DNA from: an uncultured virus (IMG/VR IMGVR_UViG_3300004686_000002)
Lineage: Duplodnaviria > Heunggongvirae > Uroviricota > Caudoviricetes
Virus record (IMG/VR): IMGVR_UViG_3300004686_000002
Location: 62,001-126,000 of that record
Length of the DNA: 64,000 bases
Reading direction: 5' to 3' (one strand)
Position 1 is the first letter of the stretch; each line of letters opens with the position of its first letter. The notes beneath the pieces were generated by a model. The model was not told the DNA's origin and searched no databases. It saw only the letters and a list, made by a program, of their open reading frames with translations. The translations under genes and the position numbers were made by a program. This document shows, in pieces, positions 38,230 to 55,937 of this stretch.

Positions 38230-40092
38230 CTACTCTTTGAAATTTGTGTGTTCGCCAAATCCTACACCATGAGCAATGCCAGGAATAGGGCTAGGTCCTC
38301 TAATGTCAGAAGAAGCTCCTTCGTTCACGGCATTACTAAAACGCTTTGCTAGATTTGTACTATAGAGCACATGCATAAAGTCATCTACGTGCTCAGGTAC
38401 GTCTAATAGTCTAACCATGTGAGGTTCAAAATTGGGGGGATCGTCATTAACCTCAACAGATTCTATTCCATGCTCTGTTAAATTTTTAATAACCGACGAA
38501 GATATTCTTGTACCTATTGTATAATGTAAAGCAGGCTTTTCCAAATATTTACCGTAGGCTAAGTCTGATCTTAAAATTTTACTGTTAGGTCTAGGTACAT
38601 AATTCTTCTCAAGTGCGGCGTATGAAACAATTTGATCGGGTAGAAAGTCACCAAGCCCGTCATTATCATTTATTTTTACGTGATCTATGGCGGACCTGGC
38701 GATCAATTCAAAGTTTCTTCTATTTACTCCCAGGTTACCCTCATCAAAAGCCTTTTTCATTGCTTGAGCATAATAGCTTCTTCCCTCACCTATACCTTTG
38801 TATCTTACAACCTCGCTAGGATCAACTAGTCCCGAACTTAGCACATCCCCTTGTTCAACTTTATCTCCAACCTTAACATAAGGCTCTTGCCCTACACCTA
38901 TATAATACTCTGTATCATTTATTTTTATAAAATATCCACCGGCGGCAGCATGTTGAACATTTGTAACAATTCCATCTTCTTGAGCGAGTGGAGCCTTGTT
39001 TAAAAATGTCTTTGGAATATTGGCTAGCTGATTAATCATCTTGAACCCTGTGACCCCACCTAAAGATGTGGCGGCTCCTCCTCCGTGTCTCAGTTTCATC
39101 GCGTACTCGGTCAAGGGTTCGCTGACTGCGGTACCCGCCACTAAACCAATATAACTATCAGGGGCCGCCAGCCCCTTTTCTCTTCTGCCTACACATAATT
39201 GGCAAACGGCTCCAAAGTGACTGTTGTTACTTGCCTTGCAAGTCATGGGCGAGCGTATCAAAATTTTATCAATTCCATGACTTTTCAAGTCATTTAACAT
39301 CTTAGCAGTAACTTCATTATTACGCTTATACTCTCCTGCGGGTTGTGCAAGATAAGCACCAACAGAATCTTTATCTGAGGTAGGTACACTTATTCCGCTT
39401 GTGGTTCCGCAATCATGTTCTGTAACTTGTAGATTCATCAGGGCTCTGGAGAACTGCTTAGAGCTGTATCCACCCTGAGCCACACCAATCTTTTTAACAA
39501 CCTCACCAGAACGAGTACCAAAAGATGTGACTAAATATTCTGGAAGAGATAATCCTTCGGCAAAAGAGCTCTTAACGGGGATATCCATCTTAGGGTTACC
39601 TTCCGCATCCACTACAATTCCCTGAGTTGCGATAGTTGATCTATATTGTGCAGGAGATCCTCTAGACCCTGCTAAAATAATCTTAGCCAAAGACTTATTA
39701 TTCTTAAGTCCCTCATCAAGAATAGTTTTGTTGGTTTCTTCCATCAAAGAATTATATTTATCAAAAATTCTTTGATTCTTGATGTGCTCTGGGTCTTTAG
39801 AGCTTTTTACCTTTTCCTGGAACTCATCGAACTTATCATAAATTTCTTTAGTATTAACAGGAGAAACAAGATCTTTAAGAGTGATGGATGTTCCTTGCCT
39901 AGTGGCTACTTCAAATCCAAGCCTAGTAAGATCTGAAGCAATTTTACTATAATTCTCCGGCTCCTGCTTTACCAGCTCACTAAAAAGGTTAGAGATTCCC
40001 TTTTTATCGAGAATCTGCCCATCTATCATGTGGTGTAAGTGTCTAGGAGTATACTCCTTTAAAAGTATTCTCCCTACCGTGGTAACAGGCAT
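38230..40092 (-). CDS. RNA polymerase beta' subunit, C-terminal part (rpoC-like)
   Basis: TTVGRIL, GSRGS, SSFAEGLSLPEY, bridge-helix-like GTRSG...GY, DCGT/RSPMTC/CQLC Zn site, trigger loop SEPLTEYAMKLRHGGG. Confidence 0.92.
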   Translation of the reverse strand: MPVTTVGRILLKEYTPRHLHHMIDGQILDKKGISNLFSELVKQEPENYSKIASDLTRLGFEVATRQGTSITLKDLVSPVNTKEIYDKFDEFQEKVKSSKDPEHIKNQRIFDKYNSLMEETNKTILDEGLKNNKSLAKIILAGSRGSPAQYRSTIATQGIVVDAEGNPKMDIPVKSSFAEGLSLPEYLVTSFGTRSGEVVKKIGVAQGGYSSKQFSRALMNLQVTEHDCGTTSGISVPTSDKDSVGAYLAQPAGEYKRNNEVTAKMLNDLKSHGIDKILIRSPMTCKASNNSHFGAVCQLCVGRREKGLAAPDSYIGLVAGTAVSEPLTEYAMKLRHGGGAATSLGGVTGFKMINQLANIPKTFLNKAPLAQEDGIVTNVQHAAAGGYFIKINDTEYYIGVGQEPYVKVGDKVEQGDVLSSGLVDPSEVVRYKGIGEGRSYYAQAMKKAFDEGNLGVNRRNFELIARSAIDHVKINDNDGLGDFLPDQIVSYAALEKNYVPRPNSKILRSDLAYGKYLEKPALHYTIGTRISSSVIKNLTEHGIESVEVNDDPPNFEPHMVRLLDVPEHVDDFMHVLYSTNLAKRFSNAVNEGASSDIRGPSPIPGIAHGVGFGEHTNFKE

Positions 40093-40093
40093 A

Positions 40094-40420
40094 TTATTTT
40101 TTGCTGGTTATTTTATCTAACAAATCTTTTACAGGAGAGGCTACTTTTAATTTATCCTTATCTATTTGATTTAATGCCTCTAAGTCCTGAAAAGCTCCAT
40201 GCATTAATTTTCCCTCTAAATTATCATGGGCCTTATCTTGTTCTGATGTATCTAAATCTCCAGTATGCTCGTCCGTACTTTCTTCTGAGTTAATGACTCC
40301 TGCTGATTGCACTGCCTGCATATCCGCAAGTTTTTCTCGAATATAACAAGCATAGTCAAAATTTGCATCTTCTGGAGTGAAGCTGTCCAAATAATTGCTA
40401 ACTTTTTCTAAGGAGCTCAT
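40094..40420 (-). CDS. Small acidic KxA-motif protein
   Basis: LEKVS, EKLA, LKVAS. Confidence 0.55.
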   Translation of the reverse strand: MSSLEKVSNYLDSFTPEDANFDYACYIREKLADMQAVQSAGVINSEESTDEHTGDLDTSEQDKAHDNLEGKLMHGAFQDLEALNQIDKDKLKVASPVKDLLDKITSKK

Positions 40421-41013
40421 TGTTGTGGTTTTCCTGATCCCATGGGAGCTGTATAAATACCACCTTGCCCCATAGCGGATTGCTGGGCTTGCTCTTGCTG
40501 AGCCTGATCTTCTGCTTGCTGCTGCTGCTTCTGCATAGCTTCCATTTTTTTATTATGGGTGTCCGCAAGTTGTTTAACCTTAAGCAAGCTATGGGTAGCC
40601 TTGCCGCCACTCGAAAGATCTAAGAGTTCTCTGACAGAAAGTGTTACCTTTGTGTTATCGAGGCTGTTCTCCGCATTAACATTTCCTGCGGCTTGCTGAG
40701 GTTCCTGCTCGGCTTGTTCTGCCGGTTGGCCTTCCTGTGGTTGCTGAGGCTGCGCTTGTTGTTGACCTACCTGCTGGATCTGCTGGGCAAGCTGTTGCAT
40801 GGCCTGGAGCTGCTGGTCGGGCGGAAGCTGTTGAAGTTGCTGCAACGCCGGGGAAATCTGCTGCTGAAGTTCGGGAGGGAGTTGAGAGATCATACCCATA
40901 AGCTGTTGCTGAGCTTGTTGCAACTGTCCCTGATCTTGTTGCGCCTGGGGATTTGGGATGAACGCCTCTTTAACTAGGCCATCATAAGATTCTATAAGGG
41001 ATTGAATATTCAT
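40417..41013 (-). CDS. Glutamine-rich low-complexity protein
   Basis: VKEA near the N-terminus, then long Q/P/A tracts; coupled to both neighbours. Confidence 0.6.
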   Translation of the reverse strand: MNIQSLIESYDGLVKEAFIPNPQAQQDQGQLQQAQQQLMGMISQLPPELQQQISPALQQLQQLPPDQQLQAMQQLAQQIQQVGQQQAQPQQPQEGQPAEQAEQEPQQAAGNVNAENSLDNTKVTLSVRELLDLSSGGKATHSLLKVKQLADTHNKKMEAMQKQQQQAEDQAQQEQAQQSAMGQGGIYTAPMGSGKPQQ

Positions 41014-41210
41014 TTGATATACTCCAGGTCTATTATTTTATTTATTTTCTTCTTTATTTCTTTTTTTAAAGTCTTAATTTTACCCTGTTGATGGGTACCC
41101 CTTAGTTCATGCTCTCCGGAATCAAGCCTGCGGAGTTCATCTAGATAGTGTTCTAGCTCCGCCAACTTTTCTTCATCAGTTAGCTTAAACCAAATTTCTT
41201 CATCTATCAT
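41010..41210 (-). CDS. Hypothetical protein
   Basis: 66 aa charged helical ORF. Confidence 0.5.
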   Translation of the reverse strand: MIDEEIWFKLTDEEKLAELEHYLDELRRLDSGEHELRGTHQQGKIKTLKKEIKKKINKIIDLEYIK

Positions 41211-41240
41211 TGTATGTGATACTTAAAGTTTAATAAAGCT

Positions 41241-44228
41241 TTAAGATAAGTCAATATTATCTCCTATGTCTAGCTTTCCGGCCATAAAATCGGCAACTAC
41301 CTGGGCTTCGCTAGAGTAGTGCATAGGTTTATTATGTTTATTCTCGTAGCTAGCCGCAAATAATCCCACAGCCGCCTCATTTGATGGGGTATATATAGGG
41401 CTAAAAGTTCTATGATAAATTAAGTTTTTCTCAGGGAATAACTTTTCTTTAACTTCTTCTTTAGCTGCGTCTCCTGCCGGAACTTGCACATTCAATTGGT
41501 CTCCGTCAGAATCAGCACCATAACCTTTAAACACCAAGGGGTTGAGCTTTATAGAGAAGTCTTTAGGATCCGGGTTAGGCCTAAGGTAGAATCCTTGAAA
41601 GTTATATTTGGATAACTGCGGGTCTCTGGTAACAATTCCTGGGCGATCCTTGAGTTCTTCTTGTAAAGCCAAGGAGGCTAAAGGGTGTTTAGACTTAACA
41701 TAGTCTCTTGCCTTTGTGGCTGGTACTCCCTGCCTTACTAATCTCCGAATAACAAAAGGAGTGTATATATTCCACAAAATAGCCTGAGGAATTGCCGCTT
41801 CGTTCAATTGAAGATTTCCATCCGGCACAAGTACCCCTCTACCCACGAGGTCTATTGGTTTATTCACAACCTTTGCCTGGAACATTGAGCTTTTTGCACT
41901 ACCTCCTTGTGTGCCCAGTGTTGTGGCTAACAAACCTTTAAAGTTTTTTTCTTTGCTCCTGGTGCTGATTGGTTCGCCTAAACCATACACAGCTCTAACG
42001 CCCTCGTATAATTTTTTGCGAGCCTCTCCTTTTAATTCCACTGGAGTATGCTCGTCTATACCATTAAAAGATTTATTAACCAGCATCAAATCTTTATATA
42101 GCTCGTTAACATCAGCGCTCATGATTTGATTACCTTGAGCAGTAATAGGTCTATATTGGGCAGGGATAACCGGAATTTTAGAAATTAATAAATCTTTAGG
42201 ATGTAAATCCTGCCTCTTCAACATGGTTAAGAAAGACAAAACTTTAACAGCTGAGTCTCTCTCTGTTTTTCTGTTAGACTTAATGTAACCCTTCAGCTCG
42301 TTTATTTTATCGTCTAGCTTTATACCATTTAAAGCTTTCTCTAACGATCCATCAGCAAGCATCTCTTCAAACTTATTTTTAGTAACTCCTAAAAGTTTAC
42401 GAAGTGGTTCTTCACTAACAGGATTGGGGACTTTAAATGAAAGATTGATATGATTATAGTTATCTCCATAAATACCTACATTTACAGGGTCAAAAAGTCC
42501 GTTATTCTCAGCGACTAATTCACCATTTTTTAATTTGTAGGTTAGAGGTTCATGAATTTCACCGTGACTAATTTTTTCTATATCCTTATCTGTTTGGGGA
42601 AGAATATTAAACTTAGTTCCCTCTTGATTAACGTGCACACCAGAACCTTCTAGGTGAGAGATAAACTTGTTAAATATAAATGGAACTTTTGGTGGAGGTG
42701 GAGCATAACCTAATTTTATTGCATTCCAGAACTCGTCGTTTTTTGTTCCTCTAACAACGGCAACATCTTTTAAAACTTCTTTAGCGTCGTTAGAAAGTGC
42801 CACCGTGGTTGCAAGATTTCCCAAACGCTTACTCTTTTCTTCTGTGCCCGCCTTAGAGGGTTGCATATTGATATCGTAGGTAGTTCCTGACGATCTGGAC
42901 GAAATTTTATCTTCAGCTATATGATGGAGTCGAGTGTAGTAAGATGGTCCGGTGAATACTTCTATGTGTTTACCAGAAACAGGATCGTATAATTTCTCTG
43001 TGTCTTTTATGCCGTGTTTCTCTAATTCTTTTATTGTTTTTTCAACAACGCTACCATCAGAGAATGGTGTGATTTTTAGACTATGTCCTAATTTTTGAGC
43101 AACCTTGCCCATTGCCATGGTCGTGATGAGCCCCGGAGCAACACGGCTAGTAACACTCATCGAATTGAGCAATACATCTATAGGTTTACCGTCTTCTCCT
43201 TGAGGCATTTCACTATTGCTAACAATTCTAACCACCCCCTTTGCTCCGAAAGGATTAGATAGTTTGTCAGCTGTGGCCATAGGCCTACGAGTCTTTATAG
43301 TTACTGTGATTAATTTACCTGTGTTGCTAACATCCACAACTTCACCATCGTGCTCGTAAGTCCAGGTCTCTGTGATATCTGAATACGCGTTTTTTAATGC
43401 TCTGGAAAGTTTACCTAATTGAATCTCTAATGACTTTAATGTTTTAGGCTGATAGGCAAGAATCAATGGATCTCCGTGCTTTACTACACTTCCCCTTTTC
43501 ACAACACCAGAGCTATCTAATTTACCTAACTGGTCATTAAAGTATTTATTAGGAAACAGAGAAACATATTTATCTTTTTCTGTTTCTATACCTCTAGCTA
43601 TCTCCAATCTAACTGGAACAAGTTGCTCTGCTTCTAATTTTTTTGCAGCATCTTCGCTAATAACAAGTGCGTCCTCAAAGTTATACGATCTATACGGCAT
43701 CACGGCCGTTTTGAGATTCATACCCAAGGCCATATTGCCATGACTGTCTGAGTAGTTAGAGGTAGCTAATAAACTTTCAGGTTTAACAGAATCACCTACT
43801 TTAACAGTAGGTGTATGGTGCATATAACTTTCTCTACCTACTAAATAATTTTGATAAAGCGGATGTTCGTGCTCTTTACCAGAGTTGTCTTTTATAACAA
43901 TCTTGTCGTTGTCTACTGAAGTGACTTTTCCTGAAATATTGCTGCGTATACTAACAAGCTTGTGTCCAAACTGTTCAACAAAGCTCTTGTGTTCCTGACT
44001 TTCGCTAGATTGAACCAACGGGGCTTCTCTGTTAACCAGAGTCATGGCCTGCAGCGAACTCTTGTCTCCGATAAGCACACGAGCACCGGAAACGCTGCTC
44101 AGGCTAGGTATGAGATTTGTAACAGGAGAGAAGAAATCCGTGGTGCTCGGAATCTTATAATCTACTTTAGTTGATCTTGGGACTTTTTTGAGTTTTCCGT
44201 GGTCCAACACGAATTTGTACTCTTTCAT
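41241..44228 (-). CDS. RNA polymerase beta C-terminal / beta' N-terminal fusion subunit
   Basis: Beta motifs NLIPSL, YNFEDALVISE, ADKLSNPFGAKG, IDVLLNS, LHHIAEDKISSRS, KRLGN; then beta' motifs GLFDP, NHINL, IPVIPAQYRP, KPIDLVGRGV, RDPQL, GADSDGD. Confidence 0.93.
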   Translation of the reverse strand: MKEYKFVLDHGKLKKVPRSTKVDYKIPSTTDFFSPVTNLIPSLSSVSGARVLIGDKSSLQAMTLVNREAPLVQSSESQEHKSFVEQFGHKLVSIRSNISGKVTSVDNDKIVIKDNSGKEHEHPLYQNYLVGRESYMHHTPTVKVGDSVKPESLLATSNYSDSHGNMALGMNLKTAVMPYRSYNFEDALVISEDAAKKLEAEQLVPVRLEIARGIETEKDKYVSLFPNKYFNDQLGKLDSSGVVKRGSVVKHGDPLILAYQPKTLKSLEIQLGKLSRALKNAYSDITETWTYEHDGEVVDVSNTGKLITVTIKTRRPMATADKLSNPFGAKGVVRIVSNSEMPQGEDGKPIDVLLNSMSVTSRVAPGLITTMAMGKVAQKLGHSLKITPFSDGSVVEKTIKELEKHGIKDTEKLYDPVSGKHIEVFTGPSYYTRLHHIAEDKISSRSSGTTYDINMQPSKAGTEEKSKRLGNLATTVALSNDAKEVLKDVAVVRGTKNDEFWNAIKLGYAPPPPKVPFIFNKFISHLEGSGVHVNQEGTKFNILPQTDKDIEKISHGEIHEPLTYKLKNGELVAENNGLFDPVNVGIYGDNYNHINLSFKVPNPVSEEPLRKLLGVTKNKFEEMLADGSLEKALNGIKLDDKINELKGYIKSNRKTERDSAVKVLSFLTMLKRQDLHPKDLLISKIPVIPAQYRPITAQGNQIMSADVNELYKDLMLVNKSFNGIDEHTPVELKGEARKKLYEGVRAVYGLGEPISTRSKEKNFKGLLATTLGTQGGSAKSSMFQAKVVNKPIDLVGRGVLVPDGNLQLNEAAIPQAILWNIYTPFVIRRLVRQGVPATKARDYVKSKHPLASLALQEELKDRPGIVTRDPQLSKYNFQGFYLRPNPDPKDFSIKLNPLVFKGYGADSDGDQLNVQVPAGDAAKEEVKEKLFPEKNLIYHRTFSPIYTPSNEAAVGLFAASYENKHNKPMHYSSEAQVVADFMAGKLDIGDNIDLS

Positions 44229-44234
44229 CCAAAC

Positions 44235-44263
44235 ATTCTATCAACAGCCTGTTTAAAAGGCTA
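44235..44263 (-). promoter_or_regulatory. Probable leaderless promoter of the RNAP fusion gene
   Basis: TAGCCT-N17-TAGAAT (extended TGn)-N6-ATG. Confidence 0.5.
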
Positions 44264-44291
44264 CTGATTTGTTAATAGCCGCGTTATGTAG

Positions 44292-45083
44292 TTAATTCCT
44301 GAGCTCTGCCATTGCCTGCTCTAACTGGTCTAGGGTTAAACCCGCAGGAGTAGAATTGTTAGATTTAACCCATTCAACGTCCACAAGAGCATATGCCTCA
44401 TCTGTAAACTTACTAAAGAAATCCCAAGTCATTGTGTAATATTGCCCCCATGAAATAACTTTTAATCCAACATTATTATATCCGGCAGCAATAATGGCAT
44501 GCCCTCCTACTATAGTATTGTCTGCTGAAGGTTCGAGTGTCCAAACAGCGGGAGGGTTGCCTTCTGGAGGAGTAATATATTGAGGAACGTCTATACCCAT
44601 ATACAACACACCACATGCATTGATAGCAGATTTTATGGCGTCAATGTGATTAACATGAATTTCATAAAAAGCAGTCAACTTATGTCTCTCTGCGTCTCCC
44701 GACCCTACAGGTGCCCCCTCATTGAGAAGATAGGTGAGAACTTGCTGCTCATTACCACCGTTATCTGTGGCAGGATTACCTGGTATATATCCGCAAGCGC
44801 GCTCATACAGGATTTCAACTTCAGCGTCGTCTTCTGTTAATAACTGCCCTGTTGTATTATAACTCCAAACCTGTAGTGCGTGATAGAACGCCGCGCAGGT
44901 ACAGTCGCCCAGTTGGTCATTCATCATCACTCCCAGATTGCTGGGCATTCCTACGGTATAATCAACTTCTTCCGGAAAAGCGGGAATTGGTTTGCCCGCC
45001 AGCAGTGTGCGCATGAAGGGAATCTTGGGATTATGACTTCTTGGCTGCCTTCCTCCCTGAAATGTTTTTCCGGTTATGCTCAT
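44292..45083 (-). CDS. Papain-like (C1-type) cysteine peptidase
   Basis: NDQLGDCTCAA (catalytic Cys), GGHAIIAAGY (His), ISWG. Confidence 0.8.
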   Translation of the reverse strand: MSITGKTFQGGRQPRSHNPKIPFMRTLLAGKPIPAFPEEVDYTVGMPSNLGVMMNDQLGDCTCAAFYHALQVWSYNTTGQLLTEDDAEVEILYERACGYIPGNPATDNGGNEQQVLTYLLNEGAPVGSGDAERHKLTAFYEIHVNHIDAIKSAINACGVLYMGIDVPQYITPPEGNPPAVWTLEPSADNTIVGGHAIIAAGYNNVGLKVISWGQYYTMTWDFFSKFTDEAYALVDVEWVKSNNSTPAGLTLDQLEQAMAELRN

Positions 45084-45133
45084 AATATTAGATATGTTGG
45101 TTATACTAGAATATTTTAACCTTTTTAAAGAAG

Positions 45134-45445
45134 TTAGTCCACCTCTTCTGGGTTATCCACAAATCTTAATCCGCATCTCCAGAGTACATGCGCTATGTCA
45201 TCACTGATTTCATCCACGATGTCATTGTCTAATTCCCAAACAGCACAATGTATCAACTCATCCAAAAGAGTAGCCAGCATCTCCTTAGGTGATTGATCTG
45301 GATCTACAACCACAGTTTTACCTTTGGCTTCTGGGTTATCCGTGCGCCCTCTGTTCTTGGTTTCATTAATCAGATTAGGTAGCAATAGGAATTTATACCT
45401 TCTGCCTCTTACTGTGATAGAATGAATATTCTCTAGCTGTTTCAT
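45134..45445 (-). CDS. Small zincin-like protein with variant DExxH motif
   Basis: ATLLDELIHCA in place of TLLHExxH. Confidence 0.55.
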   Translation of the reverse strand: MKQLENIHSITVRGRRYKFLLLPNLINETKNRGRTDNPEAKGKTVVVDPDQSPKEMLATLLDELIHCAVWELDNDIVDEISDDIAHVLWRCGLRFVDNPEEVD

Positions 45446-45590
45446 AATGTATTTGCAGACTAGGATACTCTATAAACCCCTATATTGGAAGCGAGGATTT
45501 CAAGGGCCACCTAGTCTATTAGATAGATCCCTCTTTTTAACATCTCTCTCCTACACATTCCATCATCCAAAAGATTCCAGTACAGAGAAT

Positions 45591-45619
45591 TTGACAACCG
45601 TGCTTTCTGTGGATAATTT
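45591..45619 (+). promoter_or_regulatory. Probable leaderless promoter of the HUH gene
   Basis: TTGACA-N17-TAATTT-N6-ATG(45626). Confidence 0.55.
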
Positions 45620-47839: not shown

Positions 47840-48640
47840 ATGGATTTAGACCTCACGGCTTTTAGCTTGGGCTTTAATGACCTCCTCAACGAGAAGAAGG
47901 GAGATTTCAATAGCTATGTAGACCACCTGGCTAACGAGAATATACTTCCATCTTTCTCAGGGCAGAAGAACTGGAAATATGTGGTTACTCCTGAAGGGTT
48001 GAGGCTATCTGATGGTAACCATGTTTACGGCTTTGGATTGAGTGAGTTCGGAGGAGAACTCAAACCTGTTGAAAAACTCAAAGATATAAATATATTAGAC
48101 TTTGAGAAAGACAAACTGCACGGAGGCACGGCCCAAATCCACAGAAGTAGCCCGCACAGCATCTATATGACCCTAGCCACAGGCAGAGAAAATCCTACAT
48201 TTGTGTTAGAGCACAGTGAAGGCAGAAACTGGAAATATCTGCCATCTAAAAAGATGATGAAGAGGTTAGAGGCTATTAAAAATCAAGAATCGCAAGTCAT
48301 TCCTAAAGTTGATCCAGAAGCACTCTTGAGAGGAGGAGAAGAAGAAATTAAAACTGCAGAATTCAACGGACTTCTAGGCTCTCCTGAAAATGCGGCTCAT
48401 CTCATGTTCGGAGGAATCAACAATGTGAGAGGAGCTATGGGCGCAATGGCTTCACACCCTCTACTCACCATAGGTGGAACAATTCTTGGAGGGTTGCTCT
48501 TGAATCATCTTAGAAAGAAACTTAGCCCTGAATATAATCAGCAAATGCAGGCAAACCCAGGGCAAGAGTTCAATAGATCTGTTGGACTTCCATTGCTCGC
48601 TGGTGGAGCTCTTGTGGGGTTAGGAGGGGCTTTAAAATGA
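47840..48640 (+). CDS. Putative internal virion protein with two hydrophobic segments
   Basis: Likely start MDLDLTAFSLGF at 47840; IKTA; LLTIGGTILGGLLL; LLAGGALVGLGG. Confidence 0.6.
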   Translation: MDLDLTAFSLGFNDLLNEKKGDFNSYVDHLANENILPSFSGQKNWKYVVTPEGLRLSDGNHVYGFGLSEFGGELKPVEKLKDINILDFEKDKLHGGTAQIHRSSPHSIYMTLATGRENPTFVLEHSEGRNWKYLPSKKMMKRLEAIKNQESQVIPKVDPEALLRGGEEEIKTAEFNGLLGSPENAAHLMFGGINNVRGAMGAMASHPLLTIGGTILGGLLLNHLRKKLSPEYNQQMQANPGQEFNRSVGLPLLAGGALVGLGGALK

Positions 48641-49020
48641 ACGAAGCTATCTCAACAGGCATGGAAGGGTTGGAGCTAGGAGGTGCGCTGGATTTCTCTA
48701 GTTTGATAGGTCCAGGAGAAACAATGCTTCCTGCGGATCTTGCAAAATATATAAAAGCAGACCATGCTCTTTCTCAGGATCAAAAGACCCACATATTGAG
48801 AATGCTCAACTCACCAGATGTAGCCAGTCATTTGCTCGCCGGAACAGCAGGGGCAGCCTTGGCTCTGGCTGTGGCTAGGTGGAAAAAGATGAGCGGCACT
48901 AGCCAGGTACTTATGAGCTTGGCAGGTTTTGGATTAGGAAATATAATATTAAACAAATTGATGGGTCCCTCGAAATTTACACGTTGGGACCCTGATACAG
49001 GAACAGTCACAGTACTATGA
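48637..49020 (+). CDS. Small protein with two hydrophobic segments
   Basis: LLAGTAGAALALAV; LMSLAGFGLGNIIL. Confidence 0.6.
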   Translation: MNEAISTGMEGLELGGALDFSSLIGPGETMLPADLAKYIKADHALSQDQKTHILRMLNSPDVASHLLAGTAGAALALAVARWKKMSGTSQVLMSLAGFGLGNIILNKLMGPSKFTRWDPDTGTVTVL

Positions 49021-49388
49021 ACTTAACATCTTACGCAAAAACAATAAAAGAAGTATTAGCCGATGATCTTCAGAAGATCGGAAGCTCGTTGGAGGAATTC
49101 GAGCATGCCCTGGCTAATATCAATACGGCAGAAGGAGCCATGAAGGTTGCGTCTGATCTTAATGTAATGAATGACTTTCTCATTCGTCCTGCTGCAGGTA
49201 TTGCAGGAGGTCTTCCTCATTGGGCCATGAACACAAGCGCCGCAGCAGGAGCTGCTGGCGGCATGGCTTTTGACGAGATGGAAAATAATGTTTCAGAATT
49301 AAATCAAGCCCTAGCCAGAGAGAGGCAGAAGGTACATATGATTAGAAATTTAACCCACAAACTAAAACAAGAACATGGCCTACACTAA
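49017..49388 (+). CDS. Putative internal virion protein
   Basis: MKVAS followed by an A/G-rich segment and a coiled coil. Confidence 0.6.
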   Translation: MNLTSYAKTIKEVLADDLQKIGSSLEEFEHALANINTAEGAMKVASDLNVMNDFLIRPAAGIAGGLPHWAMNTSAAAGAAGGMAFDEMENNVSELNQALARERQKVHMIRNLTHKLKQEHGLH

Positions 49389-49743
49389 CACAGAAAAAGC
49401 AACAGAACATTTTGACTTTGGAACAGCTAGTCCTGACTTCAGGCCTCAGCCCAAGCGCAGCATCCAGAGAGAATTAAAAGGAGAGATCCTAGATCAGCAA
49501 AAAACAGTAGATGCCTTTGAGCAGGCCAAGGGCTGGGCTAAAAAGCCAAAGATGGATCTCTCTATATATGAGTTTCACAACATCGTATTAGACCCAGAAA
49601 AGCAGCATGATGGTGAAATGCTGTCCAGGCTCTTGAACGACGAGAAATATGTGATCAGCTACTACAAGGATAATTGGACTCCTCAAGGAAGTTATAGAGT
49701 CTTTGTGATTTACGGAAAAAAGAAGGAAACCTCTAATGAATAA
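49375..49743 (+). CDS. Hypothetical protein
   Basis: 122 aa, overlaps both neighbours. Confidence 0.6.
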   Translation: MAYTNTEKATEHFDFGTASPDFRPQPKRSIQRELKGEILDQQKTVDAFEQAKGWAKKPKMDLSIYEFHNIVLDPEKQHDGEMLSRLLNDEKYVISYYKDNWTPQGSYRVFVIYGKKKETSNE

Positions 49744-50470
49744 TAACAACCAAACAAAAATACCTCTATCTCCAGAAGAGGCTTATCTTGCTTCTAAGCT
49801 TTTTGGCAGAAGCTTGTTCAGTGCTATACAACTTGCAAAAGAACAGGAAGAGGCCACCCGCAGAATGGAAGGTCTTGGTGGAGGAGACACCTTGAGAATT
49901 CCTATTCCTGTAAATACTTTGCACAAAACCAGTGAAGAGGGCGAGGCTTCTCCTGGGTTGATAGGAAGAGCAATCAGATTCAACAGAAACCCAATTCGCT
50001 CTGTGTTTGGTGGTGAGGCAGGCTTTCACGAAGCCAGGAGAGAATACTTTCAGCAACAGAAGATGCAGATACAGCGTGAACTTCAGGATGCGCAAAAAGA
50101 ATATCTCCAAACACTTCAAAAGATTAAGCAGGGTGAATTAGAAACCCCTAACGTGGATGCATTCTGCAATGGATTGGCTGCAGAAGCGACCATCAGTGAA
50201 ATTCTTCCTAAAACTGCAGGTAATACTGCAGAAGATGTAGAAATAAGCGATCACAGCCTAAAGAGACTTCTTGGTAAAGGCCTAGGTATCTTGAAAAAGC
50301 CTGTTGACCCTGTTATTGATTTAGGTGCCACAGGATTAATAGGTACAGGCGCAGGTAGTGCTTATCTTACTTATGTTATTAAGAAGAAGCTTAGAGAGAA
50401 AAATCACGCTGAGGATTATATCTCTAACATTCCTACCAGAGTAGAATTAGAACCTTACAACATAGGATGA
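49736..50470 (+). CDS. Putative internal virion protein
   Basis: HKTS, IKQG, AFCNGL, PKTA; LGATGLIGTGAGSAYLTYVI. Confidence 0.6.
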   Translation: MNNNNQTKIPLSPEEAYLASKLFGRSLFSAIQLAKEQEEATRRMEGLGGGDTLRIPIPVNTLHKTSEEGEASPGLIGRAIRFNRNPIRSVFGGEAGFHEARREYFQQQKMQIQRELQDAQKEYLQTLQKIKQGELETPNVDAFCNGLAAEATISEILPKTAGNTAEDVEISDHSLKRLLGKGLGILKKPVDPVIDLGATGLIGTGAGSAYLTYVIKKKLREKNHAEDYISNIPTRVELEPYNIG

Positions 50471-50955
50471 AAATAGACTGGAGCGAATTTGAAAGAGGAT
50501 TTTCCGATATGGAAAAAGAGGGAGGTTTTTTAACCAACCTCTTAACCTCCCGTGTGAGTAAAATATTAGATAATATTGCACCCAGACCTAATCCAGGAAT
50601 AGCTCCACTGCTTCCACAAATGCAGGGAAAGTTGAATTTAAACTTAGGCCCTGAAAAAACCATTTTTAATACTCCAGCTAACGAAGTGCACAGCATAGGC
50701 TCTCCTGTTAAAGGGCAAGAAAAGTTAGCAGGACTCATAGATCCTCATGTGCTTAGAAGTGTATTAACAGCAAAAGCCGTTAAAGGTGCGGTAAATACCA
50801 TTGCGGGTCCAGACGCACCAGAAACTTCTGAGGTACCTGAAAAAAAGGTTATTTTAGAAACTAAATATCCTGAAATGAAAAAACTTCTTGAAGATGAGAA
50901 GACTAAAGCATATCTTGAATCCTTACTCACAGAGGATTTGAACAATGCAAGCTAA
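50467..50955 (+). CDS. Putative internal virion protein
   Basis: EFERGFSDMEKEG, EKLAG. Confidence 0.6.
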   Translation: MKIDWSEFERGFSDMEKEGGFLTNLLTSRVSKILDNIAPRPNPGIAPLLPQMQGKLNLNLGPEKTIFNTPANEVHSIGSPVKGQEKLAGLIDPHVLRSVLTAKAVKGAVNTIAGPDAPETSEVPEKKVILETKYPEMKKLLEDEKTKAYLESLLTEDLNNAS

Positions 50956-51157
50956 ACAAATCTATATTCCGTCTTTAAAAATAAAAGGAACATACCTAGA
51001 AGAAATCGGCGGAGAAAAAGAAAAAGTGACCTACCCTGGTAAGCCTATAGAGGTAGAGTTAACAGCAGAAGATTTCTTATCAGAAGAAGATTATCACAGT
51101 GCCTGGATAATAATAACAAGAGCAGTGCAAAAAAAGCTTTCAAATGGAGTTTCCTAA
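50945..51157 (+). CDS. Hypothetical protein
   Basis: 70 aa, overlaps both neighbours. Confidence 0.5.
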   Translation: MQAKQIYIPSLKIKGTYLEEIGGEKEKVTYPGKPIEVELTAEDFLSEEDYHSAWIIITRAVQKKLSNGVS

Positions 51158-51797
51158 AAATACCAGAGATTTTTTTGATCCGCATGCACTGAATAAGCTT
51201 ATTCAGAAACATGTGCTAGAAGGTTTTAAGTCTAAGTTAGGGCAGATAGAAACAAACGACCACAAGTTAGAGGTAGAGAACATAGAGATACACCCAAAGC
51301 CATTCTCTATAGAGGACCAGAAAAAGGCTATCTTAGAAAAGCGTGATCTTACTTACCCAATAAAGGGAGATGTGCACTTGGTGGATAAACGCACAGGTCA
51401 GCGGGTAGAATCCAAACATATTACCATTGCGAATATTCCTTTTGTCACAGACAGGAATACGGTTGTGTATAACGGCAGTGAGTATGAGCCTATTCATCAG
51501 CAGAGATTGCTTCCTGGGGTTTACTCCAGGATTCGCCAAAGCGGAGAAGCAGAAGCTCACATCAATCCGGCCCCTAGAACAGGAATGGGCGGAAGAATAT
51601 TATTTTATCCAGACAAACAACTTTTTGTTTTGATGCTTCAGAACACGCAAATAAAGCTTTATGGTGTGATGAGAGATCTCGGCGTGTCTGATAGCCAAAT
51701 GCAAGCCGCCTGGGGAAATGAGATTTATTTAGCCAATAAGAAAATGTACACAGGCGACGAAATAGACAAGTTGTACAATAAAATATTTTTAAGTTAA
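51144..51797 (+). CDS. RNA polymerase beta subunit, N-terminal fragment (rpoB-like)
   Basis: RDLTYPIKG...IANIPFVTDRNTVVYNGSEY...QQRLLPGVY matches the beta N-terminal pattern IPxMTxxGTFxINGxERVxVxQLxRSPGVY. Confidence 0.85.
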   Translation: MEFPKNTRDFFDPHALNKLIQKHVLEGFKSKLGQIETNDHKLEVENIEIHPKPFSIEDQKKAILEKRDLTYPIKGDVHLVDKRTGQRVESKHITIANIPFVTDRNTVVYNGSEYEPIHQQRLLPGVYSRIRQSGEAEAHINPAPRTGMGGRILFYPDKQLFVLMLQNTQIKLYGVMRDLGVSDSQMQAAWGNEIYLANKKMYTGDEIDKLYNKIFLS

Positions 51798-51851
51798 AAT
51801 TTGCAACCCTACCGTGTCAGAGGTATATATTAAGAGGAGGTGAACACACAC

Positions 51852-52073
51852 ATGAATAAAAACGCATACGAAATCAGATTAGACATTCTTATGGACGCTC
51901 ACAGGTATTGTACTGAATTATTTCAGCACAAAGCCTCTGCGTTTATGGCGGCAGCTGAGAAAGACAATAAGGTTGTTTCACCAGAAGCAATTGAAAAGCT
52001 ATATCCATCAAAAAAGGAAATCATCAGCACTGCAGAAATGTTTTATGAGTTTGTGGGAGGCAGCCACAAATAA
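51852..52073 (+). CDS. Small phage hypothetical protein
   Basis: KNAYEIRLDIL...YPS...FYEFV; GGAGGTG RBS fits the ATG at 51852; TTGCAA-N17-TATATA at 51801-51829. Confidence 0.65.
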   Translation: MNKNAYEIRLDILMDAHRYCTELFQHKASAFMAAAEKDNKVVSPEAIEKLYPSKKEIISTAEMFYEFVGGSHK

Positions 52074-52106
52074 AATATTGCATACTAACAAACAATAAGT
52101 AATAAT

Positions 52107-52190
52107 AACTATCAGCAATGGAGAAACCTTATGTTTCTCTGGATTAGTAATCCTAGTCTGTTGCAAGGGCATAATCCATTGTTGATAGTT
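52107..52190 (+). ncRNA. Candidate structured 5' leader RNA
   Basis: 16-bp closing stem AACTATCAGCAATGGA/TCCATTGTTGATAGTT (one G-U pair) enclosing smaller hairpins. Confidence 0.5.
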
Positions 52191-52219
52191 CAACCAAAAA
52201 CAAACAACAATTAAAAATT

Positions 52220-52735
52220 ATGGCTACCACATATTCAGTTCGTAAAAACGCTTCTGGCGTTACAGCCGACAATCAGATCGGTGGACTCATCACTTCTCGC
52301 TACGAGAAGGCTAGCATGGCCTTCGGCACTATTCCTGCCGGAAGCTACAATTGCGGCGACACCATCAGCTTTGATGATGTTGACAGCCGTTATATCGTTG
52401 AGGCTCACGTCACGGCCCACCTCGGTGGCGGTGTGATCGCTCTTGATGTTGTTCCTGGAACGGATCTCACCGCAGGTCCTCTCGCGCTCAACATTGGTAC
52501 AGGAGCCACGGGCGCTGGTACAGGCGGAACGGGAACTTATTCCAACAACAACCCTGGTCCTTTGCTCAGCTATGTAATTTATTACATCCGCGGTAACGGC
52601 ACCCAAGGTTCAGCCGGATCCACGAATCCTAACGTTGGTGGTTCTGCTGGTGATCTCCTTCAGGTCACCGTGTCCGCTAGTGCAATTGTTACCAAGGATT
52701 CTGTTTCTAACACAGAAACAGGCCCTACTGTCTAA
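52220..52735 (+). CDS. Highly expressed structural protein (decoration/fibre-like)
   Basis: 171 aa G/T/S-rich; codon bias like the capsid gene; own promoter and terminator. Confidence 0.6.
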   Translation: MATTYSVRKNASGVTADNQIGGLITSRYEKASMAFGTIPAGSYNCGDTISFDDVDSRYIVEAHVTAHLGGGVIALDVVPGTDLTAGPLALNIGTGATGAGTGGTGTYSNNNPGPLLSYVIYYIRGNGTQGSAGSTNPNVGGSAGDLLQVTVSASAIVTKDSVSNTETGPTV

Positions 52736-52759
52736 TCTTTAGACCAGTTAAAAAAGAAT

Positions 52760-52793
52760 GGGGGTGTGGAGAAATCCACACCCTTATTTTTTT
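52760..52793 (+). terminator. Intrinsic terminator
   Basis: GGGTGTGGA-GAAA-TCCACACCC-TTATTTTTTT. Confidence 0.88.
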
Positions 52794-52869
52794 ATAAAAA
52801 GCACTTGCGCGTAGCTAGAGATCGTATATATTAATTCTCGTCAGTAACACTTAAACAAATAATAAACAC

Positions 52870-53016
52870 ATGGAAGAATCAAAAGAATCCCAAGTATTTC
52901 GTCTTGTTCAAGAGCTTGAACAAACCAGGAAAAATAAAAAAGCCGAGATGCAGGCTTATAACGAAGACATCAAAAGAATCAACGCCGAGATAAAAGAATT
53001 ATTAACCAAGGAATAA
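52870..53016 (+). CDS. 48 aa coiled-coil protein (below the ORF-track cutoff)
   Basis: MEESKESQVFRLVQELEQTRKNKKAEMQAYNEDIKRINAEIKELLTKE; promoter-like TTGCGC-N16-TATATT upstream. Confidence 0.6.
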   Translation: MEESKESQVFRLVQELEQTRKNKKAEMQAYNEDIKRINAEIKELLTKE

Positions 53017-53017
53017 T

Positions 53018-53299
53018 ATGAGCGCACAAGATGAACAAAGAGGCACAGTAGAACTTCCCGCAGTGGTAAGTACAGAAACAGACAAGCATATCTCTATGCT
53101 CCTGATAGAGGACGGTCTAGCTCAAGTTGAAGATCAGCTCAATGGGCTAGAATCAGGAATTGCCGAAGTCACAGAAGCAAATAAGCAGCTAACAGAAAGA
53201 ATGAATATGCTACAAAGCCGAAAGATCGCAGCTACGGCCCAAAAAAACCTATTATTCGAATTGCAGAAAAAGATTACTGAGTTGTCGGCTGCTCAGTAA
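53018..53299 (+). CDS. Coiled-coil hypothetical protein
   Basis: 93 aa. Confidence 0.6.
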   Translation: MSAQDEQRGTVELPAVVSTETDKHISMLLIEDGLAQVEDQLNGLESGIAEVTEANKQLTERMNMLQSRKIAATAQKNLLFELQKKITELSAAQ

Positions 53300-53307
53300 A
53301 TAACTAT

Positions 53308-53661
53308 ATGTCAGAGGCTCCTAATAATTTTATTATATTGTTAGGAGCCTCTGCATGGTTGGCTTATATTCTATTGGTTTGGTTTAGAACAAATGCGTTT
53401 GCCGAGTATATAAATCTTTTCAAGCTTTCTAAATATTTTAAAGTAGGCAAATATTATGAATTGGTAGAAAACGGCTATCCGGATGGATACGTTCAATTTT
53501 TAAAGGAATATTATCACGACTCTTTCCTGGTTCGTTTAGTTACATGTCCTATTTGTTTTGGATTTTGGTTAGGTTTAGATATTGCTTTGGTATTTAATAT
53601 TAACTTTTTAGTTATACCTATAGGCTTGTTTTTATATGGCTGTTTAAATAGAATTATTTGA
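53308..53661 (+). CDS. DUF1360-like membrane protein
   Basis: LVTCPICFGFWLG flanked by hydrophobic helices. Confidence 0.6.
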   Translation: MSEAPNNFIILLGASAWLAYILLVWFRTNAFAEYINLFKLSKYFKVGKYYELVENGYPDGYVQFLKEYYHDSFLVRLVTCPICFGFWLGLDIALVFNINFLVIPIGLFLYGCLNRII

Positions 53662-53662
53662 T

Positions 53663-55240
53663 ATGGCCGGATTAGAAATAAATACATCTAGTGTAATACT
53701 AGGCTCACCAGATACTTTAGGAGTTCCTCAATACACGGCGCAATATCAGCCAGGATATTTTAGTATTTCTAATGAGTCTGTTGTAGTTACTCAGTTAGCA
53801 TTAACAAATGCATTAGACTTAGTTGTAAACAGCCCAAGTTTATTAAGTGTTGGTCAGATTGTAGAGGCTTATGGCATTCAGCCCAATACAACAATAACTC
53901 AGATCTATGGAAATACCATAACTCTTAGCGCGCATCTCACACATAATATTTCTAGTGGCACTAGTCTTATATTGGGCACAATAACCCCGCCAGATAACTG
54001 CGCATTACCCGCACTTAGCGCTCCTCTATTAGACTTAGGCAGCCCTATCACACCTATGGATAGGGCCTGCAGTTTTGCATTTCCAAACGTAAATCTTGTA
54101 ACGCCTGTTTATAACGCTCCGAATATTGCTGCTCTCGCCTGTCAAACAGTTCAGGTAAAAGGAAACATAGTGCAGACTGGGGCAGCAGACGGGCAAATAA
54201 CTGTTACTAGCTCTGGCAACGCCCCTGATTGCGGTATTTTATTGGGAGGAAATATTCACGTTACTGCGTGTGAAAATTTTAAAATTGATTCTAATGTAAA
54301 GCTCACAGGCAGTGCGCAAGGAAGTTTAACATTCGGAAGTGTTTCTAGCGCTCCTGACTGCGGAGCCCAGCTTACAGGGAATATATTCGTTCCTCAGGCT
54401 TGCGAGGTTATTTTTGTCGAAAAAGGAAATATTAATTTTCCCCCTAATATGGCGGGATCTGCGTTTAATATTTACAACAAACAGTCACTCACGGCAACAA
54501 CAGGGCCTACAGGCGGAGGCGGTGGTCCTCCATGCACAATAAGCTATGATTTAGACCTTCATGTTAATGCCTGTGAAGCAATTAAAATAAATCCTATATT
54601 CAACCCTCCCTCGGCTTTCTCGGGATCCACTTTCCTGGTTAAACCAAAAGCCATAACAGGTCCAACGAGCTCCACAGGCCCAACAGCTTCTATATCTTCT
54701 GCTAGTTACGCTCAACAACAAGAAGAAAATTGTTCGGTGGATTTAAAACTGGATCTTGTGACTAACTTTTGTGAAGCTTACAAAGTATTTGGAACAGTTA
54801 CCACATCAGGGATGGCACAAGGAAACGTAAAACTGTCCTCCTCTGGGAATAAAGGGCAATGCCAGCTTATATTAGATGGTAATATAGAGGTACCAGAAAT
54901 TCTATTTGATAGCGACGTACAGACTCACGGGTTACCTTGGAGTGTTGATGTTCTGCGAGTACCAAGCGCGGCAGGTGCTACGCATACTCCTCCTCACTAT
55001 CAACTAAAAGCAGACTTTAAGCTAGGAGATAAGTTGTCATCTGTTCTTAGTGGCTGTTGGTTACCTATATCTGTTTGCGTTCTCGGAGTAACAAGGGATA
55101 TTTATGTTTGGGTGGTTGGATACCGCGGAGATAAACGATGCCCAGGCCCCACTTGCTGCTTACTGCCATCTAATCCAAACGACGGTCGTAGTCCTATCGA
55201 AATATATAGTGGCTGGTATAACGGGTATGCTCCTGCGTAA
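53663..55240 (+). CDS. Cys-repeat fibre/appendage-like protein
   Basis: 525 aa; repeated C-x(10-14)-[AF]CE units; T/G/S-rich. Confidence 0.55.
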   Translation: MAGLEINTSSVILGSPDTLGVPQYTAQYQPGYFSISNESVVVTQLALTNALDLVVNSPSLLSVGQIVEAYGIQPNTTITQIYGNTITLSAHLTHNISSGTSLILGTITPPDNCALPALSAPLLDLGSPITPMDRACSFAFPNVNLVTPVYNAPNIAALACQTVQVKGNIVQTGAADGQITVTSSGNAPDCGILLGGNIHVTACENFKIDSNVKLTGSAQGSLTFGSVSSAPDCGAQLTGNIFVPQACEVIFVEKGNINFPPNMAGSAFNIYNKQSLTATTGPTGGGGGPPCTISYDLDLHVNACEAIKINPIFNPPSAFSGSTFLVKPKAITGPTSSTGPTASISSASYAQQQEENCSVDLKLDLVTNFCEAYKVFGTVTTSGMAQGNVKLSSSGNKGQCQLILDGNIEVPEILFDSDVQTHGLPWSVDVLRVPSAAGATHTPPHYQLKADFKLGDKLSSVLSGCWLPISVCVLGVTRDIYVWVVGYRGDKRCPGPTCCLLPSNPNDGRSPIEIYSGWYNGYAPA

Positions 55241-55244
55241 ATTT

Positions 55245-55937
55245 TCAGCTTTCTGGAACCTCAACAACAGAGTTCAAGAAAGTCTGATGATCTATCCAAA
55301 TTTTTTTACCAGAAGAGTCCTCTACTAATCTATAGAGCTTACCGTCTTCTCCTTTTCTGCAGTTTTTAACAAAAAAGTTTACCACGCCTATTGTTTCGGC
55401 TTCTACTGTTTGAATAGGGTCCATTAGTCCAAACTGACTCTCATTAACACTTCTGGAGCTATCAGGAATGCTCTCTGTGCTTCCTATGCCGCCCTCACCC
55501 ATCTTGCTGACTTTGTGGGCAAGCATATATTGCTCCATAGGATTTACACCCTCGATGTTTTGGCTCAGGGCGTTACCCACAAAAACACTCTTTATTTGAG
55601 GAGTAAAAAAGCCGCTATGCAGCCAGGATAGATTTCTTTTTTGTCTGAGCTTCATCTTTGCTTTCATTTGTATCTTACCCGCATCGTGCTCTATGTGCTC
55701 TTTGACATAATCCTCCGCACCTAAAAATTTTGAATACGCCAGGTTATCTCTATCATCGGGATGTACTTCTCTGCTATAAACCTTTAAAAGCTTACTCGTT
55801 GTCTGCAGTAATACCGCGGGATTTATGTGGTTAACAGACATACCAAGGGTTTTCCCCATAACACCCACGTCTAGTCGAATGTTTCCAAAGTATTCTTTTA
55901 TTTTTTGTGCCTTCTCGGCCTTAGTCATCGTATTCAT
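55245..55937 (-). CDS. RNA polymerase beta subunit, middle (fork) fragment (rpoB-like)
   Basis: DDRDNL, LSQ...NPMEQ...HKVSKMGEGGI, RSVNESQFGLMDPIQTVEAETIGVV correspond to DDIDHL...NPL...GPGGL...RDVHxSHYGRxCPIETPEGxNIGL. Confidence 0.9.
   Translation of the reverse strand: MNTMTKAEKAQKIKEYFGNIRLDVGVMGKTLGMSVNHINPAVLLQTTSKLLKVYSREVHPDDRDNLAYSKFLGAEDYVKEHIEHDAGKIQMKAKMKLRQKRNLSWLHSGFFTPQIKSVFVGNALSQNIEGVNPMEQYMLAHKVSKMGEGGIGSTESIPDSSRSVNESQFGLMDPIQTVEAETIGVVNFFVKNCRKGEDGKLYRLVEDSSGKKIWIDHQTFLNSVVEVPES

Follow-up and report, generated by a model that had tools for sequence, protein, structure and literature searches.

A bacterial-type RNA polymerase core divided among four genes, with the end of beta joined to the start of beta-prime, in an uncultured freshwater phage

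Results

A polymerase core in four pieces

We examined a 64,000-nucleotide stretch of DNA (the window; positions 62,001 to 126,000 of the IMG/VR record IMGVR_UViG_3300004686_000002, an uncultured virus of the Caudoviricetes) and found that it carries a bacterial-type multisubunit RNA polymerase whose beta and beta-prime subunits are distributed over four genes. These encode a beta-N chain of 217 amino acids (aa) (51144..51797, + strand), a beta-middle chain of 230 aa (55245..55937, - strand), a 995-aa chain in which the C-terminal half of beta runs into the N-terminal part of beta-prime (41241..44228, - strand), and a beta-prime-C chain of 620 aa (38230..40092, - strand). Together, the four chains comprise 2,062 residues and span beta and beta-prime, with the pieces scattered over 18 kb and both strands. 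In five of five related genomes (55 to 100% identity; one of them complete, with terminal repeats), the four genes are likewise separate, of similar sizes, and in the same relative order and on the same strands.

All four open reading frames (ORFs) were found where a sequence-only reading of the window had placed them. Its central claim, a polymerase split into four genes on both strands, is borne out by the agreement among the ORFs, their Pfam, PDB, and NCBIfam matches, and the layout in relatives, and the homology of each piece identifies the four as parts of a single bacterial-type beta/beta-prime core. The record containing the window is 131,625 bp long and an estimated 67% complete. A 182-kb record (G001) holds a copy of the 995-aa gene at 100% identity, and the four genes belong to the genome of an uncultured freshwater phage of ∼180 kb. 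Its nearest cultured relatives are Salmonella phage Arash and Vibrio phages D69, D148, and D181. While homology, architecture, conservation, and purifying selection were observed directly, we consider it probable that the products of the four genes form the core of the one multisubunit RNA polymerase that the phage possesses, with the anatomy described here and the mechanism proposed below.

Anatomy of the four chains

The 995-aa chain matched Pfam RNA_pol_Rpb2_6 at residues 96 to 459 (E = 3e-54, 185 bits), Rpb1_1 at residues 655 to 725, and Rpb1_2 at residues 856 to 928 (E = 7e-12). With Rpb2_6 and Rpb1_2 both inside this chain, the two double-psi beta-barrels (DPBBs) lie on one polypeptide, as had been claimed. 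Residues 1 to ∼541-555 correspond to the C-terminal half of beta, including its DPBB (with K322 and K330), the flap, and the last beta residues; from residue ∼545-550 on, the chain is beta-prime, with the clamp helices, the lid, and the DPBB carrying D906, D908, and D910. At the junction, residues ∼545 to 560 align with Salmonella beta-prime 27 to 40, so beta-prime starts at once. Alignments with the Salmonella and S. aureus proteins and with Arash Gp206 place the start of the chain at about E. coli beta 630 to 636. A phmmer search of the PDB gave E = 6e-42 for Thermus thermophilus beta and ∼1e-31 for matches to beta-prime. The AlphaFold2 model of the chain had a mean predicted local distance difference test score (pLDDT) of 87.1 and a predicted template modeling score (pTM) of 0.77. 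VIA-align superimposed model residues 1 to 541/555 on T. thermophilus beta residues 507 to 1118 of 1119 (Z, 33 to 38; root mean square deviation, 3.3 to 4.0; ∼500 residues aligned). The VIA-align list was taken up by beta chains, and the identification of the beta-prime half comes from its sequence.

The catalytic residues appear intact, in line with the sequence-only reading, and the three motifs on which that claim was based (ADKLSNPFGAKG, GADSDGD, and AMKLRH) are present in the translations. In the beta DPBB motif, ADKLSNPFGAKG, K322 and K330 were invariant in 40 of 40 aligned family members, as were D906, D908, and D910 in the GADSDGD of the beta-prime DPBB; D321, G328, and G909 were invariant in the same set. 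The trigger-loop residues had been named as Met and His. Both occur in AMKLRH, and the His was invariant in 27 of 27 aligned sequences, but the Met is merely the majority residue, conserved in fewer than 90%. The motifs were also said to stay close to bacterial rpoB and rpoC. This is so, yet the enzyme is trimmed. In alignment with Salmonella beta-prime, the beta-prime zinc-binding domain (four Cys; ∼58 to 100) is deleted, as it is in Arash and D69, and the 995-aa chain contains no cysteine at all. The segment matching beta-prime 125 to 172 is missing from the window chain, unlike in Arash and D69, and most of the beta lobe (E. coli ∼225 to 445) is missing across the whole phage family. The clamp helices and lid are kept in the 995-aa chain, and a flap-tip-like helix is kept in Arash and D69.

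Pfam recognized three of the four chains. The exception, the 217-aa beta-N chain, had no Pfam match and was identified through bacterial beta N-termini in the PDB (S. aureus beta 76 to 225; E = 2.9e-7), NCBIfam rpoB (E = 3e-8), and residues 12 to 210 of Arash Gp206 (E = 3e-25). By alignment, it reaches to about E. coli beta 373. The beta-middle chain matched Pfam Rpb2_3 (27.7 bits, against a cutoff of 21) and residues 240 to 469 of Arash Gp206 (E = 4e-22). It contains the fork (Rpb2 domain 3) and the remainder of the beta1 region; its match to bacterial beta lies at about E. coli 426 to 587, and the chain spans about E. coli beta 375 to 621 by alignment. In all five relatives, beta-N and beta-middle are stand-alone frames, of 218 to 227 aa and 232 to 270 aa, respectively. 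On Arash Gp206, the end of beta-middle and the start of the 995-aa chain lie only a few residues apart, and the cuts cost no residues. Trans-splicing of the pieces by split inteins was rejected because they align end to end with Arash Gp206 and carry no extra intein halves.

The 620-aa beta-prime-C chain, a separate gene in 5/5 relatives, matched Pfam Rpb1_5 (E = 9.6e-15) and the end of Rpb1_3, NCBIfam rpoC at model positions 549 to 1065 of 1147 (E = 1.2e-57), and Arash Gp216 (E = 8e-64); its best PDB beta-prime match had E = 1.6e-37. Residue 4 aligns with E. coli beta-prime 572, which places the start of the chain at ∼569 to 572, and residue 26 aligns with residues 6 to 13 of the cyanobacterial beta-prime piece. 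The chain holds the bridge helix, the trigger loop with AMKLRH, and the second zinc site, whose C228, C285, C297, and C300, like the trigger-loop H336, were invariant in the 27 aligned sequences. The last ∼125 residues had no model match.

No recognizable alpha or omega subunit

Searches with the alpha and omega profiles PF01000, PF01193, and PF01192 at E ≤ 1 gave no match in any of the five related genomes (0/5 for each profile), and all 14 control genomes were positive. The earlier statement that no alpha or omega subunit can be recognized thus extends to the relatives. Since all cellular enzymes have these subunits, their absence from five of five genomes by the three Pfam profiles could mean that the enzyme is a hybrid, in which the phage would supply the catalytic part and sigma and its chains would assemble on a host alpha dimer, perhaps with omega. 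The phage sequences also appear much closer to bacterial ones than phiKZ-type sequences do, and the 60 best PDB matches listed for each of the two large chains include no phiKZ or AR9 chain. We nevertheless consider a hybrid unlikely. A virion-packed enzyme would need to carry host alpha with it; phiKZ- and AR9-type enzymes work without alpha, according to the accessible part of a review (PMC7598289); and the hosts of the family are diverse (Salmonella, Vibrio, and freshwater bacteria). Because the family infects such different hosts, a conserved fit to host alpha would be harder to keep.

A sigma factor that likely belongs to the phage enzyme

The window also encodes a small sigma-70-family factor of 212 aa (6883..7521, - strand). 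It matched Pfam Sigma70_r3 (E = 7.7e-11), and its residues 10 to 137 align with E. coli sigma70 381 to 509 (E = 2e-7), covering regions 2 and 3; region 4 is probably present as well. The protein is the ortholog of Arash Gp10 (E = 3e-12) and has 291 homologs of 210 to 212 aa, and each of the five related genomes contains one Sigma70_r3 match above the cutoff. A second sigma factor like Arash Gp196, the Arash portal, and the Arash helicase Gp217 had no tblastn match in the 131-kb record, which is 67% complete.

We modeled the complex of beta-prime-N (residues 540 to 995 of the 995-aa chain) with this sigma. The model scored 0.76, compared with 0.00 for the best control. This passes a mark that 116 of 157 solved complexes attain, as do 2 of 215 mismatched pairs. 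Three runs agreed in at least 41% of contacts, and the pLDDT of the partner was at least 71. The predicted contact, between sigma residues 26 to 43 and beta-prime clamp helices 708 to 739, is the canonical interface of the clamp helices with sigma region 2. It is important to note that sigma on beta-prime is a textbook complex of solved structure, so the pass may show no more than likeness.

The 212-aa sigma is likely the initiation factor of the window polymerase. We regard it as quite unlikely that it instead serves the host polymerase while the phage core initiates in some other way. That alternative has precedents, in that the openly readable passages of two reviews describe sigma homologs as usual in jumbo phages that have no polymerase and known phage multisubunit enzymes as working without sigma (PMC7598289; PMC13282480). 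Here, however, sigma and core occur together in five of five genomes, and both were found in Arash particles (PMC10585845, in its accessible part). The retention of the clamp helices and, in Arash and D69, of the flap-tip-like helix also argues for the phage core as the partner, as does the placing of sigma region 2 on the phage clamp helices in the model, subject to the holoenzyme likeness just described.

The enzyme belongs to a large phage family

The window enzyme is a variant, further split, of an Arash-type phage polymerase family. The counterparts of beta-N, beta-middle, and the 995-aa chain follow one another in Arash Gp206 (1,525 aa), at residues 12-210, 240-469, and ∼483-1516, respectively, and Gp216 (606 aa) is the equivalent of beta-prime-C; D69 has the same two genes, with whole beta and beta-prime-N in D69 0261. 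The enzymes of Arash (OQ632216.1), D69, D148, and D181 share 26 to 32% identity with that of the window and resemble it in the join of beta to beta-prime, the beta-prime cut after the barrel, the missing zinc-binding domain, the reduced lobe, an orthologous small sigma, a single set per genome, and the location of the genes beside head genes. They differ in that beta and beta-prime-N form one gene of a two-gene core, whereas in the window beta is spread over three genes of a four-gene core.

We scanned 1.84 billion representative sequences with the 995-aa chain and obtained 1,468 matches at E ≤ 1e-30, cellular beta and beta-prime included; the best 150 of these 1,468 were all from this phage family. 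Among 146 representatives (P0125-P0270), 118 had beta-N, beta-middle, and beta-C/beta-prime-N in one chain, 9 lacked only beta-N, and 19 lacked both beta-N and beta-middle; none of the 146 contained the beta-prime-C part. The usual form of the family is therefore whole beta and beta-prime-N in one gene of ∼1,450 to 1,530 aa, with beta-prime-C apart. The window enzyme shares the continuity of the beta end with the beta-prime start and the separate beta-prime-C chain; neither it nor any of its five close relatives has whole beta in one chain. The window finding is thus a well-supported member of a large family and not an isolated case.

Some relatives carry inserted domains in these genes. The junction of beta-N and beta-middle is an insertion site in relatives, where SET, DUF5661, and 2H-phosphoesterase domains were found (P0132, P0154). 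A 2H-phosphoesterase-type domain also occurs in the beta-prime-C of relatives P0494 and P0502, and the window has a free-standing 136-aa SET-domain gene (62063-62473, - strand) ∼6 kb from beta-middle. Large inserts in at least 24 of the 146 representatives, of intein type in some relatives, lie some tens of residues before the cut between beta-middle and beta-C, near the cut but not at it; the one in P0141 carries a LAGLIDADG domain. The polymerase genes of the family often carry inteins with LAGLIDADG or Hint domains (P0016, P0100, P0130, P0142, P0143, P0154, and P0473-P0493). Several adjoin the catalytic loop of the beta-prime barrel or lie in beta-prime-C, with products of up to 2,900 aa. 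Another fusion variant, relative P0190 (1,818 aa), consists of a beta-C/beta-prime-N chain followed by ∼800 residues with an AAA_18 match.

Comparison with known polymerases

The enzyme had been contrasted with the phiKZ/AR9 type, and the contrast stands. As far as the accessible passages of the literature on those enzymes go, the two types are alike in having beta and beta-prime in several polypeptides, no alpha or omega, a beta-prime cut near the cyanobacterial site, and one virion-packed form (PMC7598289). The same passages describe two sets per phage (virion and non-virion), no sigma homolog, no beta/beta-prime fusion, and highly divergent sequences (PMC7598289; PMC7824862). The window phage has one set, a true sigma-70-family factor, a covalent join, and bacterial-type sequence (E values down to 6e-42 against PDB beta).

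In cyanobacteria and plastids (gamma/RpoC1 plus RpoC2), too, the cut in beta-prime follows the catalytic barrel. Cyanobacterial gamma aligns with the 995-aa chain up to ∼550 of 619, and the phage cut lies ∼20 to 25 residues (phage numbering) upstream of the cyanobacterial one, near but not identical. Cyanobacteria differ in having a separate and whole beta, and no large trigger-loop insertion is evident in the phage.

Bacterial-like beta and beta-prime also occur in the mReC phages, a group of uncultured tailed phages (Weinheimer & Aylward 2020, PMC7481178). According to the openly readable part of that paper, the group was defined by NADxDGD and by beta and beta-prime each matched separately over at least 800 aa. 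In contrast, the window motif is GADSDGD, and its beta-prime parts, ∼450 aa (fused) and 620 aa, do not reach 800 aa. In the accessible text of that paper, "fused" and "fusion" are applied to crAss-like phages only. The passages on RNA polymerase in the Arash paper are silent on a fusion (PMC10585845), and the accessible portion of a 2026 jumbo-phage review names neither Arash nor a fused form (PMC13282480). The Arash and D69 proteins are already deposited and annotated, the former only as "subunit beta" and the latter as "hypothetical." We found no printed description of this architecture in the openly readable literature, including the accessible parts of PMC7481178, PMC7824862, PMC7598289, PMC13282480, and PMC12153180.

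Bacterial fused RpoBC proteins (NF007172 and NF011417) resemble the phage chain in that the beta end is linked to the beta-prime start and both barrels lie on one chain. Both subunits are whole in those proteins (∼2,840 to 2,890 model positions), which work with alpha and omega, and the phage chain has half of each subunit. The sequence-only reading had proposed that the enzyme derives from a bacterial rpoBC fusion that was later re-split, which would require a fusion of the Helicobacter or Wolbachia kind to have been captured by a phage. NF007172, the model of fused beta/beta-prime, was indeed the best single NCBIfam match of the 995-aa chain (E = 2.4e-61, 206.9 bits, in three stretches), and the phage beta end runs into the beta-prime start as it does in the bacterial fusions. 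The score is, however, far under the NF007172 cutoff of 5372 bits (for NF011417, 169 against 4632) and below those of rpoB (182.5) and rpoC (147.2) combined, so this comparison with bacteria, made through profile models, does not tie the chain specifically to fusions of the Helicobacter or Wolbachia type. In the PDB, the best-matching enzymes were those of Thermus, clostridia, cyanobacteria, and plastids, at 23 to 28% identity, with no affinity to one phylum. Moreover, the fusion and the beta-prime cut are common to a very large phage family in which beta is mostly whole. Because rpoB and rpoC are adjacent in bacteria (as seen in L019), a fusion within the phage lineage would have been equally easy. 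The origin proposed in the sequence-only reading is only partly right, and we judge capture of a bacterial fusion to be very unlikely.

Direction of change

To place the four-gene form, we used a FastTree tree of 132 rows and 983 hidden Markov model match columns, rooted on two bacterial beta plus beta-prime rows; 34 phage rows with a fill of <70% were left out. The four-gene clade (20 of 20 rows without the N-terminal parts; support, 100) falls within grades of whole-beta forms, Arash and D69 lie near the base, and all basal branches are whole-beta. Because the four-gene clade nests in this way, the extra cuts in beta are derived and arose inside the phage lineage. A second small cluster also lacks the N-terminal parts, and an origin of the cut between beta-middle and beta-C in either one or two events is compatible with the tree. 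One genome piece from this second cluster, L022, is a three-gene intermediate, with beta-N and beta-middle in one 789-aa ORF, a ∼335-aa insert between them, and the fusion as a separate ORF 3.4 kb downstream.

The opposite direction, in which the split state would be ancient and the long whole-beta genes of relatives would be later fusions, seems to us highly improbable. A whole-beta protein, P0171, does lie within a cluster of proteins without the beta N-terminal parts, and multipiece phage polymerases have been argued to predate cellular ones, in the accessible text for phiKZ-type enzymes (PMC7824862). Against this stand the basal whole-beta branches and the single, nested, fully supported four-gene clade under a bacterial root. 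Beta is contiguous in bacteria too, and pieces dispersed over both strands are more easily reached by fission and rearrangement than the reverse.

The layout is real and under selection

The sequence-only reading had asked whether the split points could be assembly artifacts. Contigs from two other freshwater runs (X2 and X3) extend across the ends of all four ORFs; they contain no joints and match the window without indels (0 differences). The local gene order (103-aa ORF, fusion, 198-aa ORF, 108-aa ORF, beta-prime-C, 763-aa structural gene) was kept in eight of eight related loci, with the 198-aa ORF undetected in one. More than 120 protein clusters share the 995-aa form, and 120 of 120 homologs among the matches listed (53 to 92% identity) lacked the beta-N and beta-middle parts. 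The ratio of nonsynonymous to synonymous substitution rates (dN/dS) was ∼0.02 for the two large genes, with dS saturated; for beta-N, compared with the 88%-identical relative L005, dN was 0.10 and synonymous sites were saturated. One relative (G005:C1:159880-161733; 97% complete) has a single in-frame TAA in its beta-prime-C match, which could stem from a sequencing error or mark a broken copy. This TAA is what might speak for an assembly artifact or decaying pseudogenes, an explanation refuted by the same layout in five independent genomes, the contigs from two other runs across all gene ends, the invariant catalytic residues, and the low dN/dS.

How the enzyme may work

Each of the five related genomes contains one Rpb2_6 locus and one Rpb1_2 locus. 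With one polymerase set per genome, a single enzyme must serve all phage transcription outside the host's share. We propose the following course for this enzyme. The ancestral form of the family had two genes, with the beta end joined to the beta-prime start and beta-prime cut just after the catalytic barrel. Two further cuts in beta arose in this clade, one at the reduced lobe (∼E. coli beta 373) and one separating the fork from the remaining beta (∼621-636), and the two N-terminal beta pieces were then relocated 7 to 11 kb away, one of them to the other strand. The four chains would reassemble into a single core. Its active center would lie between the two barrels of the 995-aa chain, and the 620-aa chain would contribute the bridge helix and trigger loop. 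The 212-aa phage sigma would most likely initiate transcription, docking on the retained clamp helices and the beta flap, and the covalent beta/beta-prime link may replace part of the assembly role of the alpha dimer. Core and sigma are probably packed in the virion, by analogy with Arash, and would transcribe after injection; as only one set exists, later genes would be served by this enzyme as well.

Packaging in the virion had been proposed because the polymerase genes sit among genes for internal proteins. The genes following beta-prime-C do match Arash structural proteins Gp218 and Gp222, but the case for packaging comes from elsewhere. According to the accessible part of the Arash paper, mass spectrometry of particles detected Gp206 with 3516 spectra (the most-detected protein), Gp216 with 1210, and the sigma Gp10 with 467, all three ranking with the most abundant particle proteins (PMC10585845). 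Orthology to these three proteins makes packaging of the window core and sigma plausible by analogy; the original reason is not the basis.

Several observations weigh against the interpretation laid out above. Sigma-70-type promoter matches over 38000-57000 were at chance (41, with 41.1 expected), as were terminator matches over the same region (18, with 15.5 expected), and a k-mer count over 24 intergenic regions returned A/T-rich words only and no shared promoter motif. The lack of alpha and omega was observed with three Pfam profiles, and a divergent or unrelated assembly subunit, or host alpha, may be involved. The trigger-loop Met is conserved in fewer than 90% of the aligned sequences, the tree has two bacterial outgroup rows, poorly separated branches at several deep forks, and 34 dropped rows, and the authors of the Arash study state, in its accessible part, that abundant enzymes may merely copurify with particles (PMC10585845). 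Finally, there was no RNA run among the sequencing runs listed as holding phage sequence, and the polymerase is known here from its genes. Thus, we put forward only tentatively the broader combination of a sigma-dependent bacterial-type polymerase that needs no alpha by virtue of the covalent beta/beta-prime join at the clamp, is packed in the virion with its own sigma, and runs the whole phage program independently of the host enzyme; we think it somewhat doubtful that all of these parts hold together.

Neighboring genes and other features of the window

Two small ORFs, of 108 and 198 aa, lie between the fusion gene and beta-prime-C (40094..41013, - strand), and their position is conserved. 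By tblastn, the 108-aa ORF was at the same place in eight of eight related loci and the 198-aa ORF in seven of eight. Pfam, PHROG, and NCBIfam all gave nothing for the small ORFs near the polymerase genes, which were considered as candidates for extra subunits. The 103-aa ORF belonged to virus-only hypothetical clusters in the Atlas, where the 198-aa ORF had a poor model (pTM, 0.23) and no usable match. We treat the 108-aa and 198-aa ORFs as neighbors that are at most candidate parts of the enzyme. A 263-aa ORF (44292-45083, - strand; phrog_19005) immediately upstream of the fusion gene is absent from that place in eight of eight related loci and so was probably inserted recently in the window phage.

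A Shine-Dalgarno-like purine run was not evident before the starts inspected (e.g., 51144, 55937, 44228, and 40092), which, together with the finding of the sequence in freshwater metagenome runs, hints at weak Shine-Dalgarno use by the host. Two long ORFs on the + strand (45626-46993 and 46737-47837) overlap by 257 bases, which could reflect a wrong start or a programmed frameshift. At 56246-63090 there is a cluster of the nucleotide- or DNA-modification type, with a dCMP deaminase, a glycosyltransferase of family 17, a methyltransferase-like ORF, and a GT34-like transferase. The gene at 63372-63998 (- strand) may be split or may continue in another frame past the end of the window.

Implications

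To our knowledge, every multisubunit RNA polymerase of cells is assembled on a platform of the alpha type, with beta and beta-prime separate; the phage exceptions known, phiKZ and AR9, are very divergent and work without sigma. The family described here combines a bacterial-like sequence and a true sigma with altered subunit borders, and it does without alpha, omega, most of the lobe, and the zinc-binding domain. This makes it a tractable system in which to test the purpose of the alpha platform and of the subunit borders. Arash is cultured, and its relatives range from two-gene through three-gene to four-gene forms. This large family has hardly been studied, and its load of inteins and its inserted SET and 2H-phosphoesterase domains suggest further biology. 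If the alpha-free combination proposed above is true, the four-gene clade would be a natural experiment in which a core assembles despite two further cuts in beta, and the enzyme would be a minimal, portable, sigma-programmable multisubunit polymerase.

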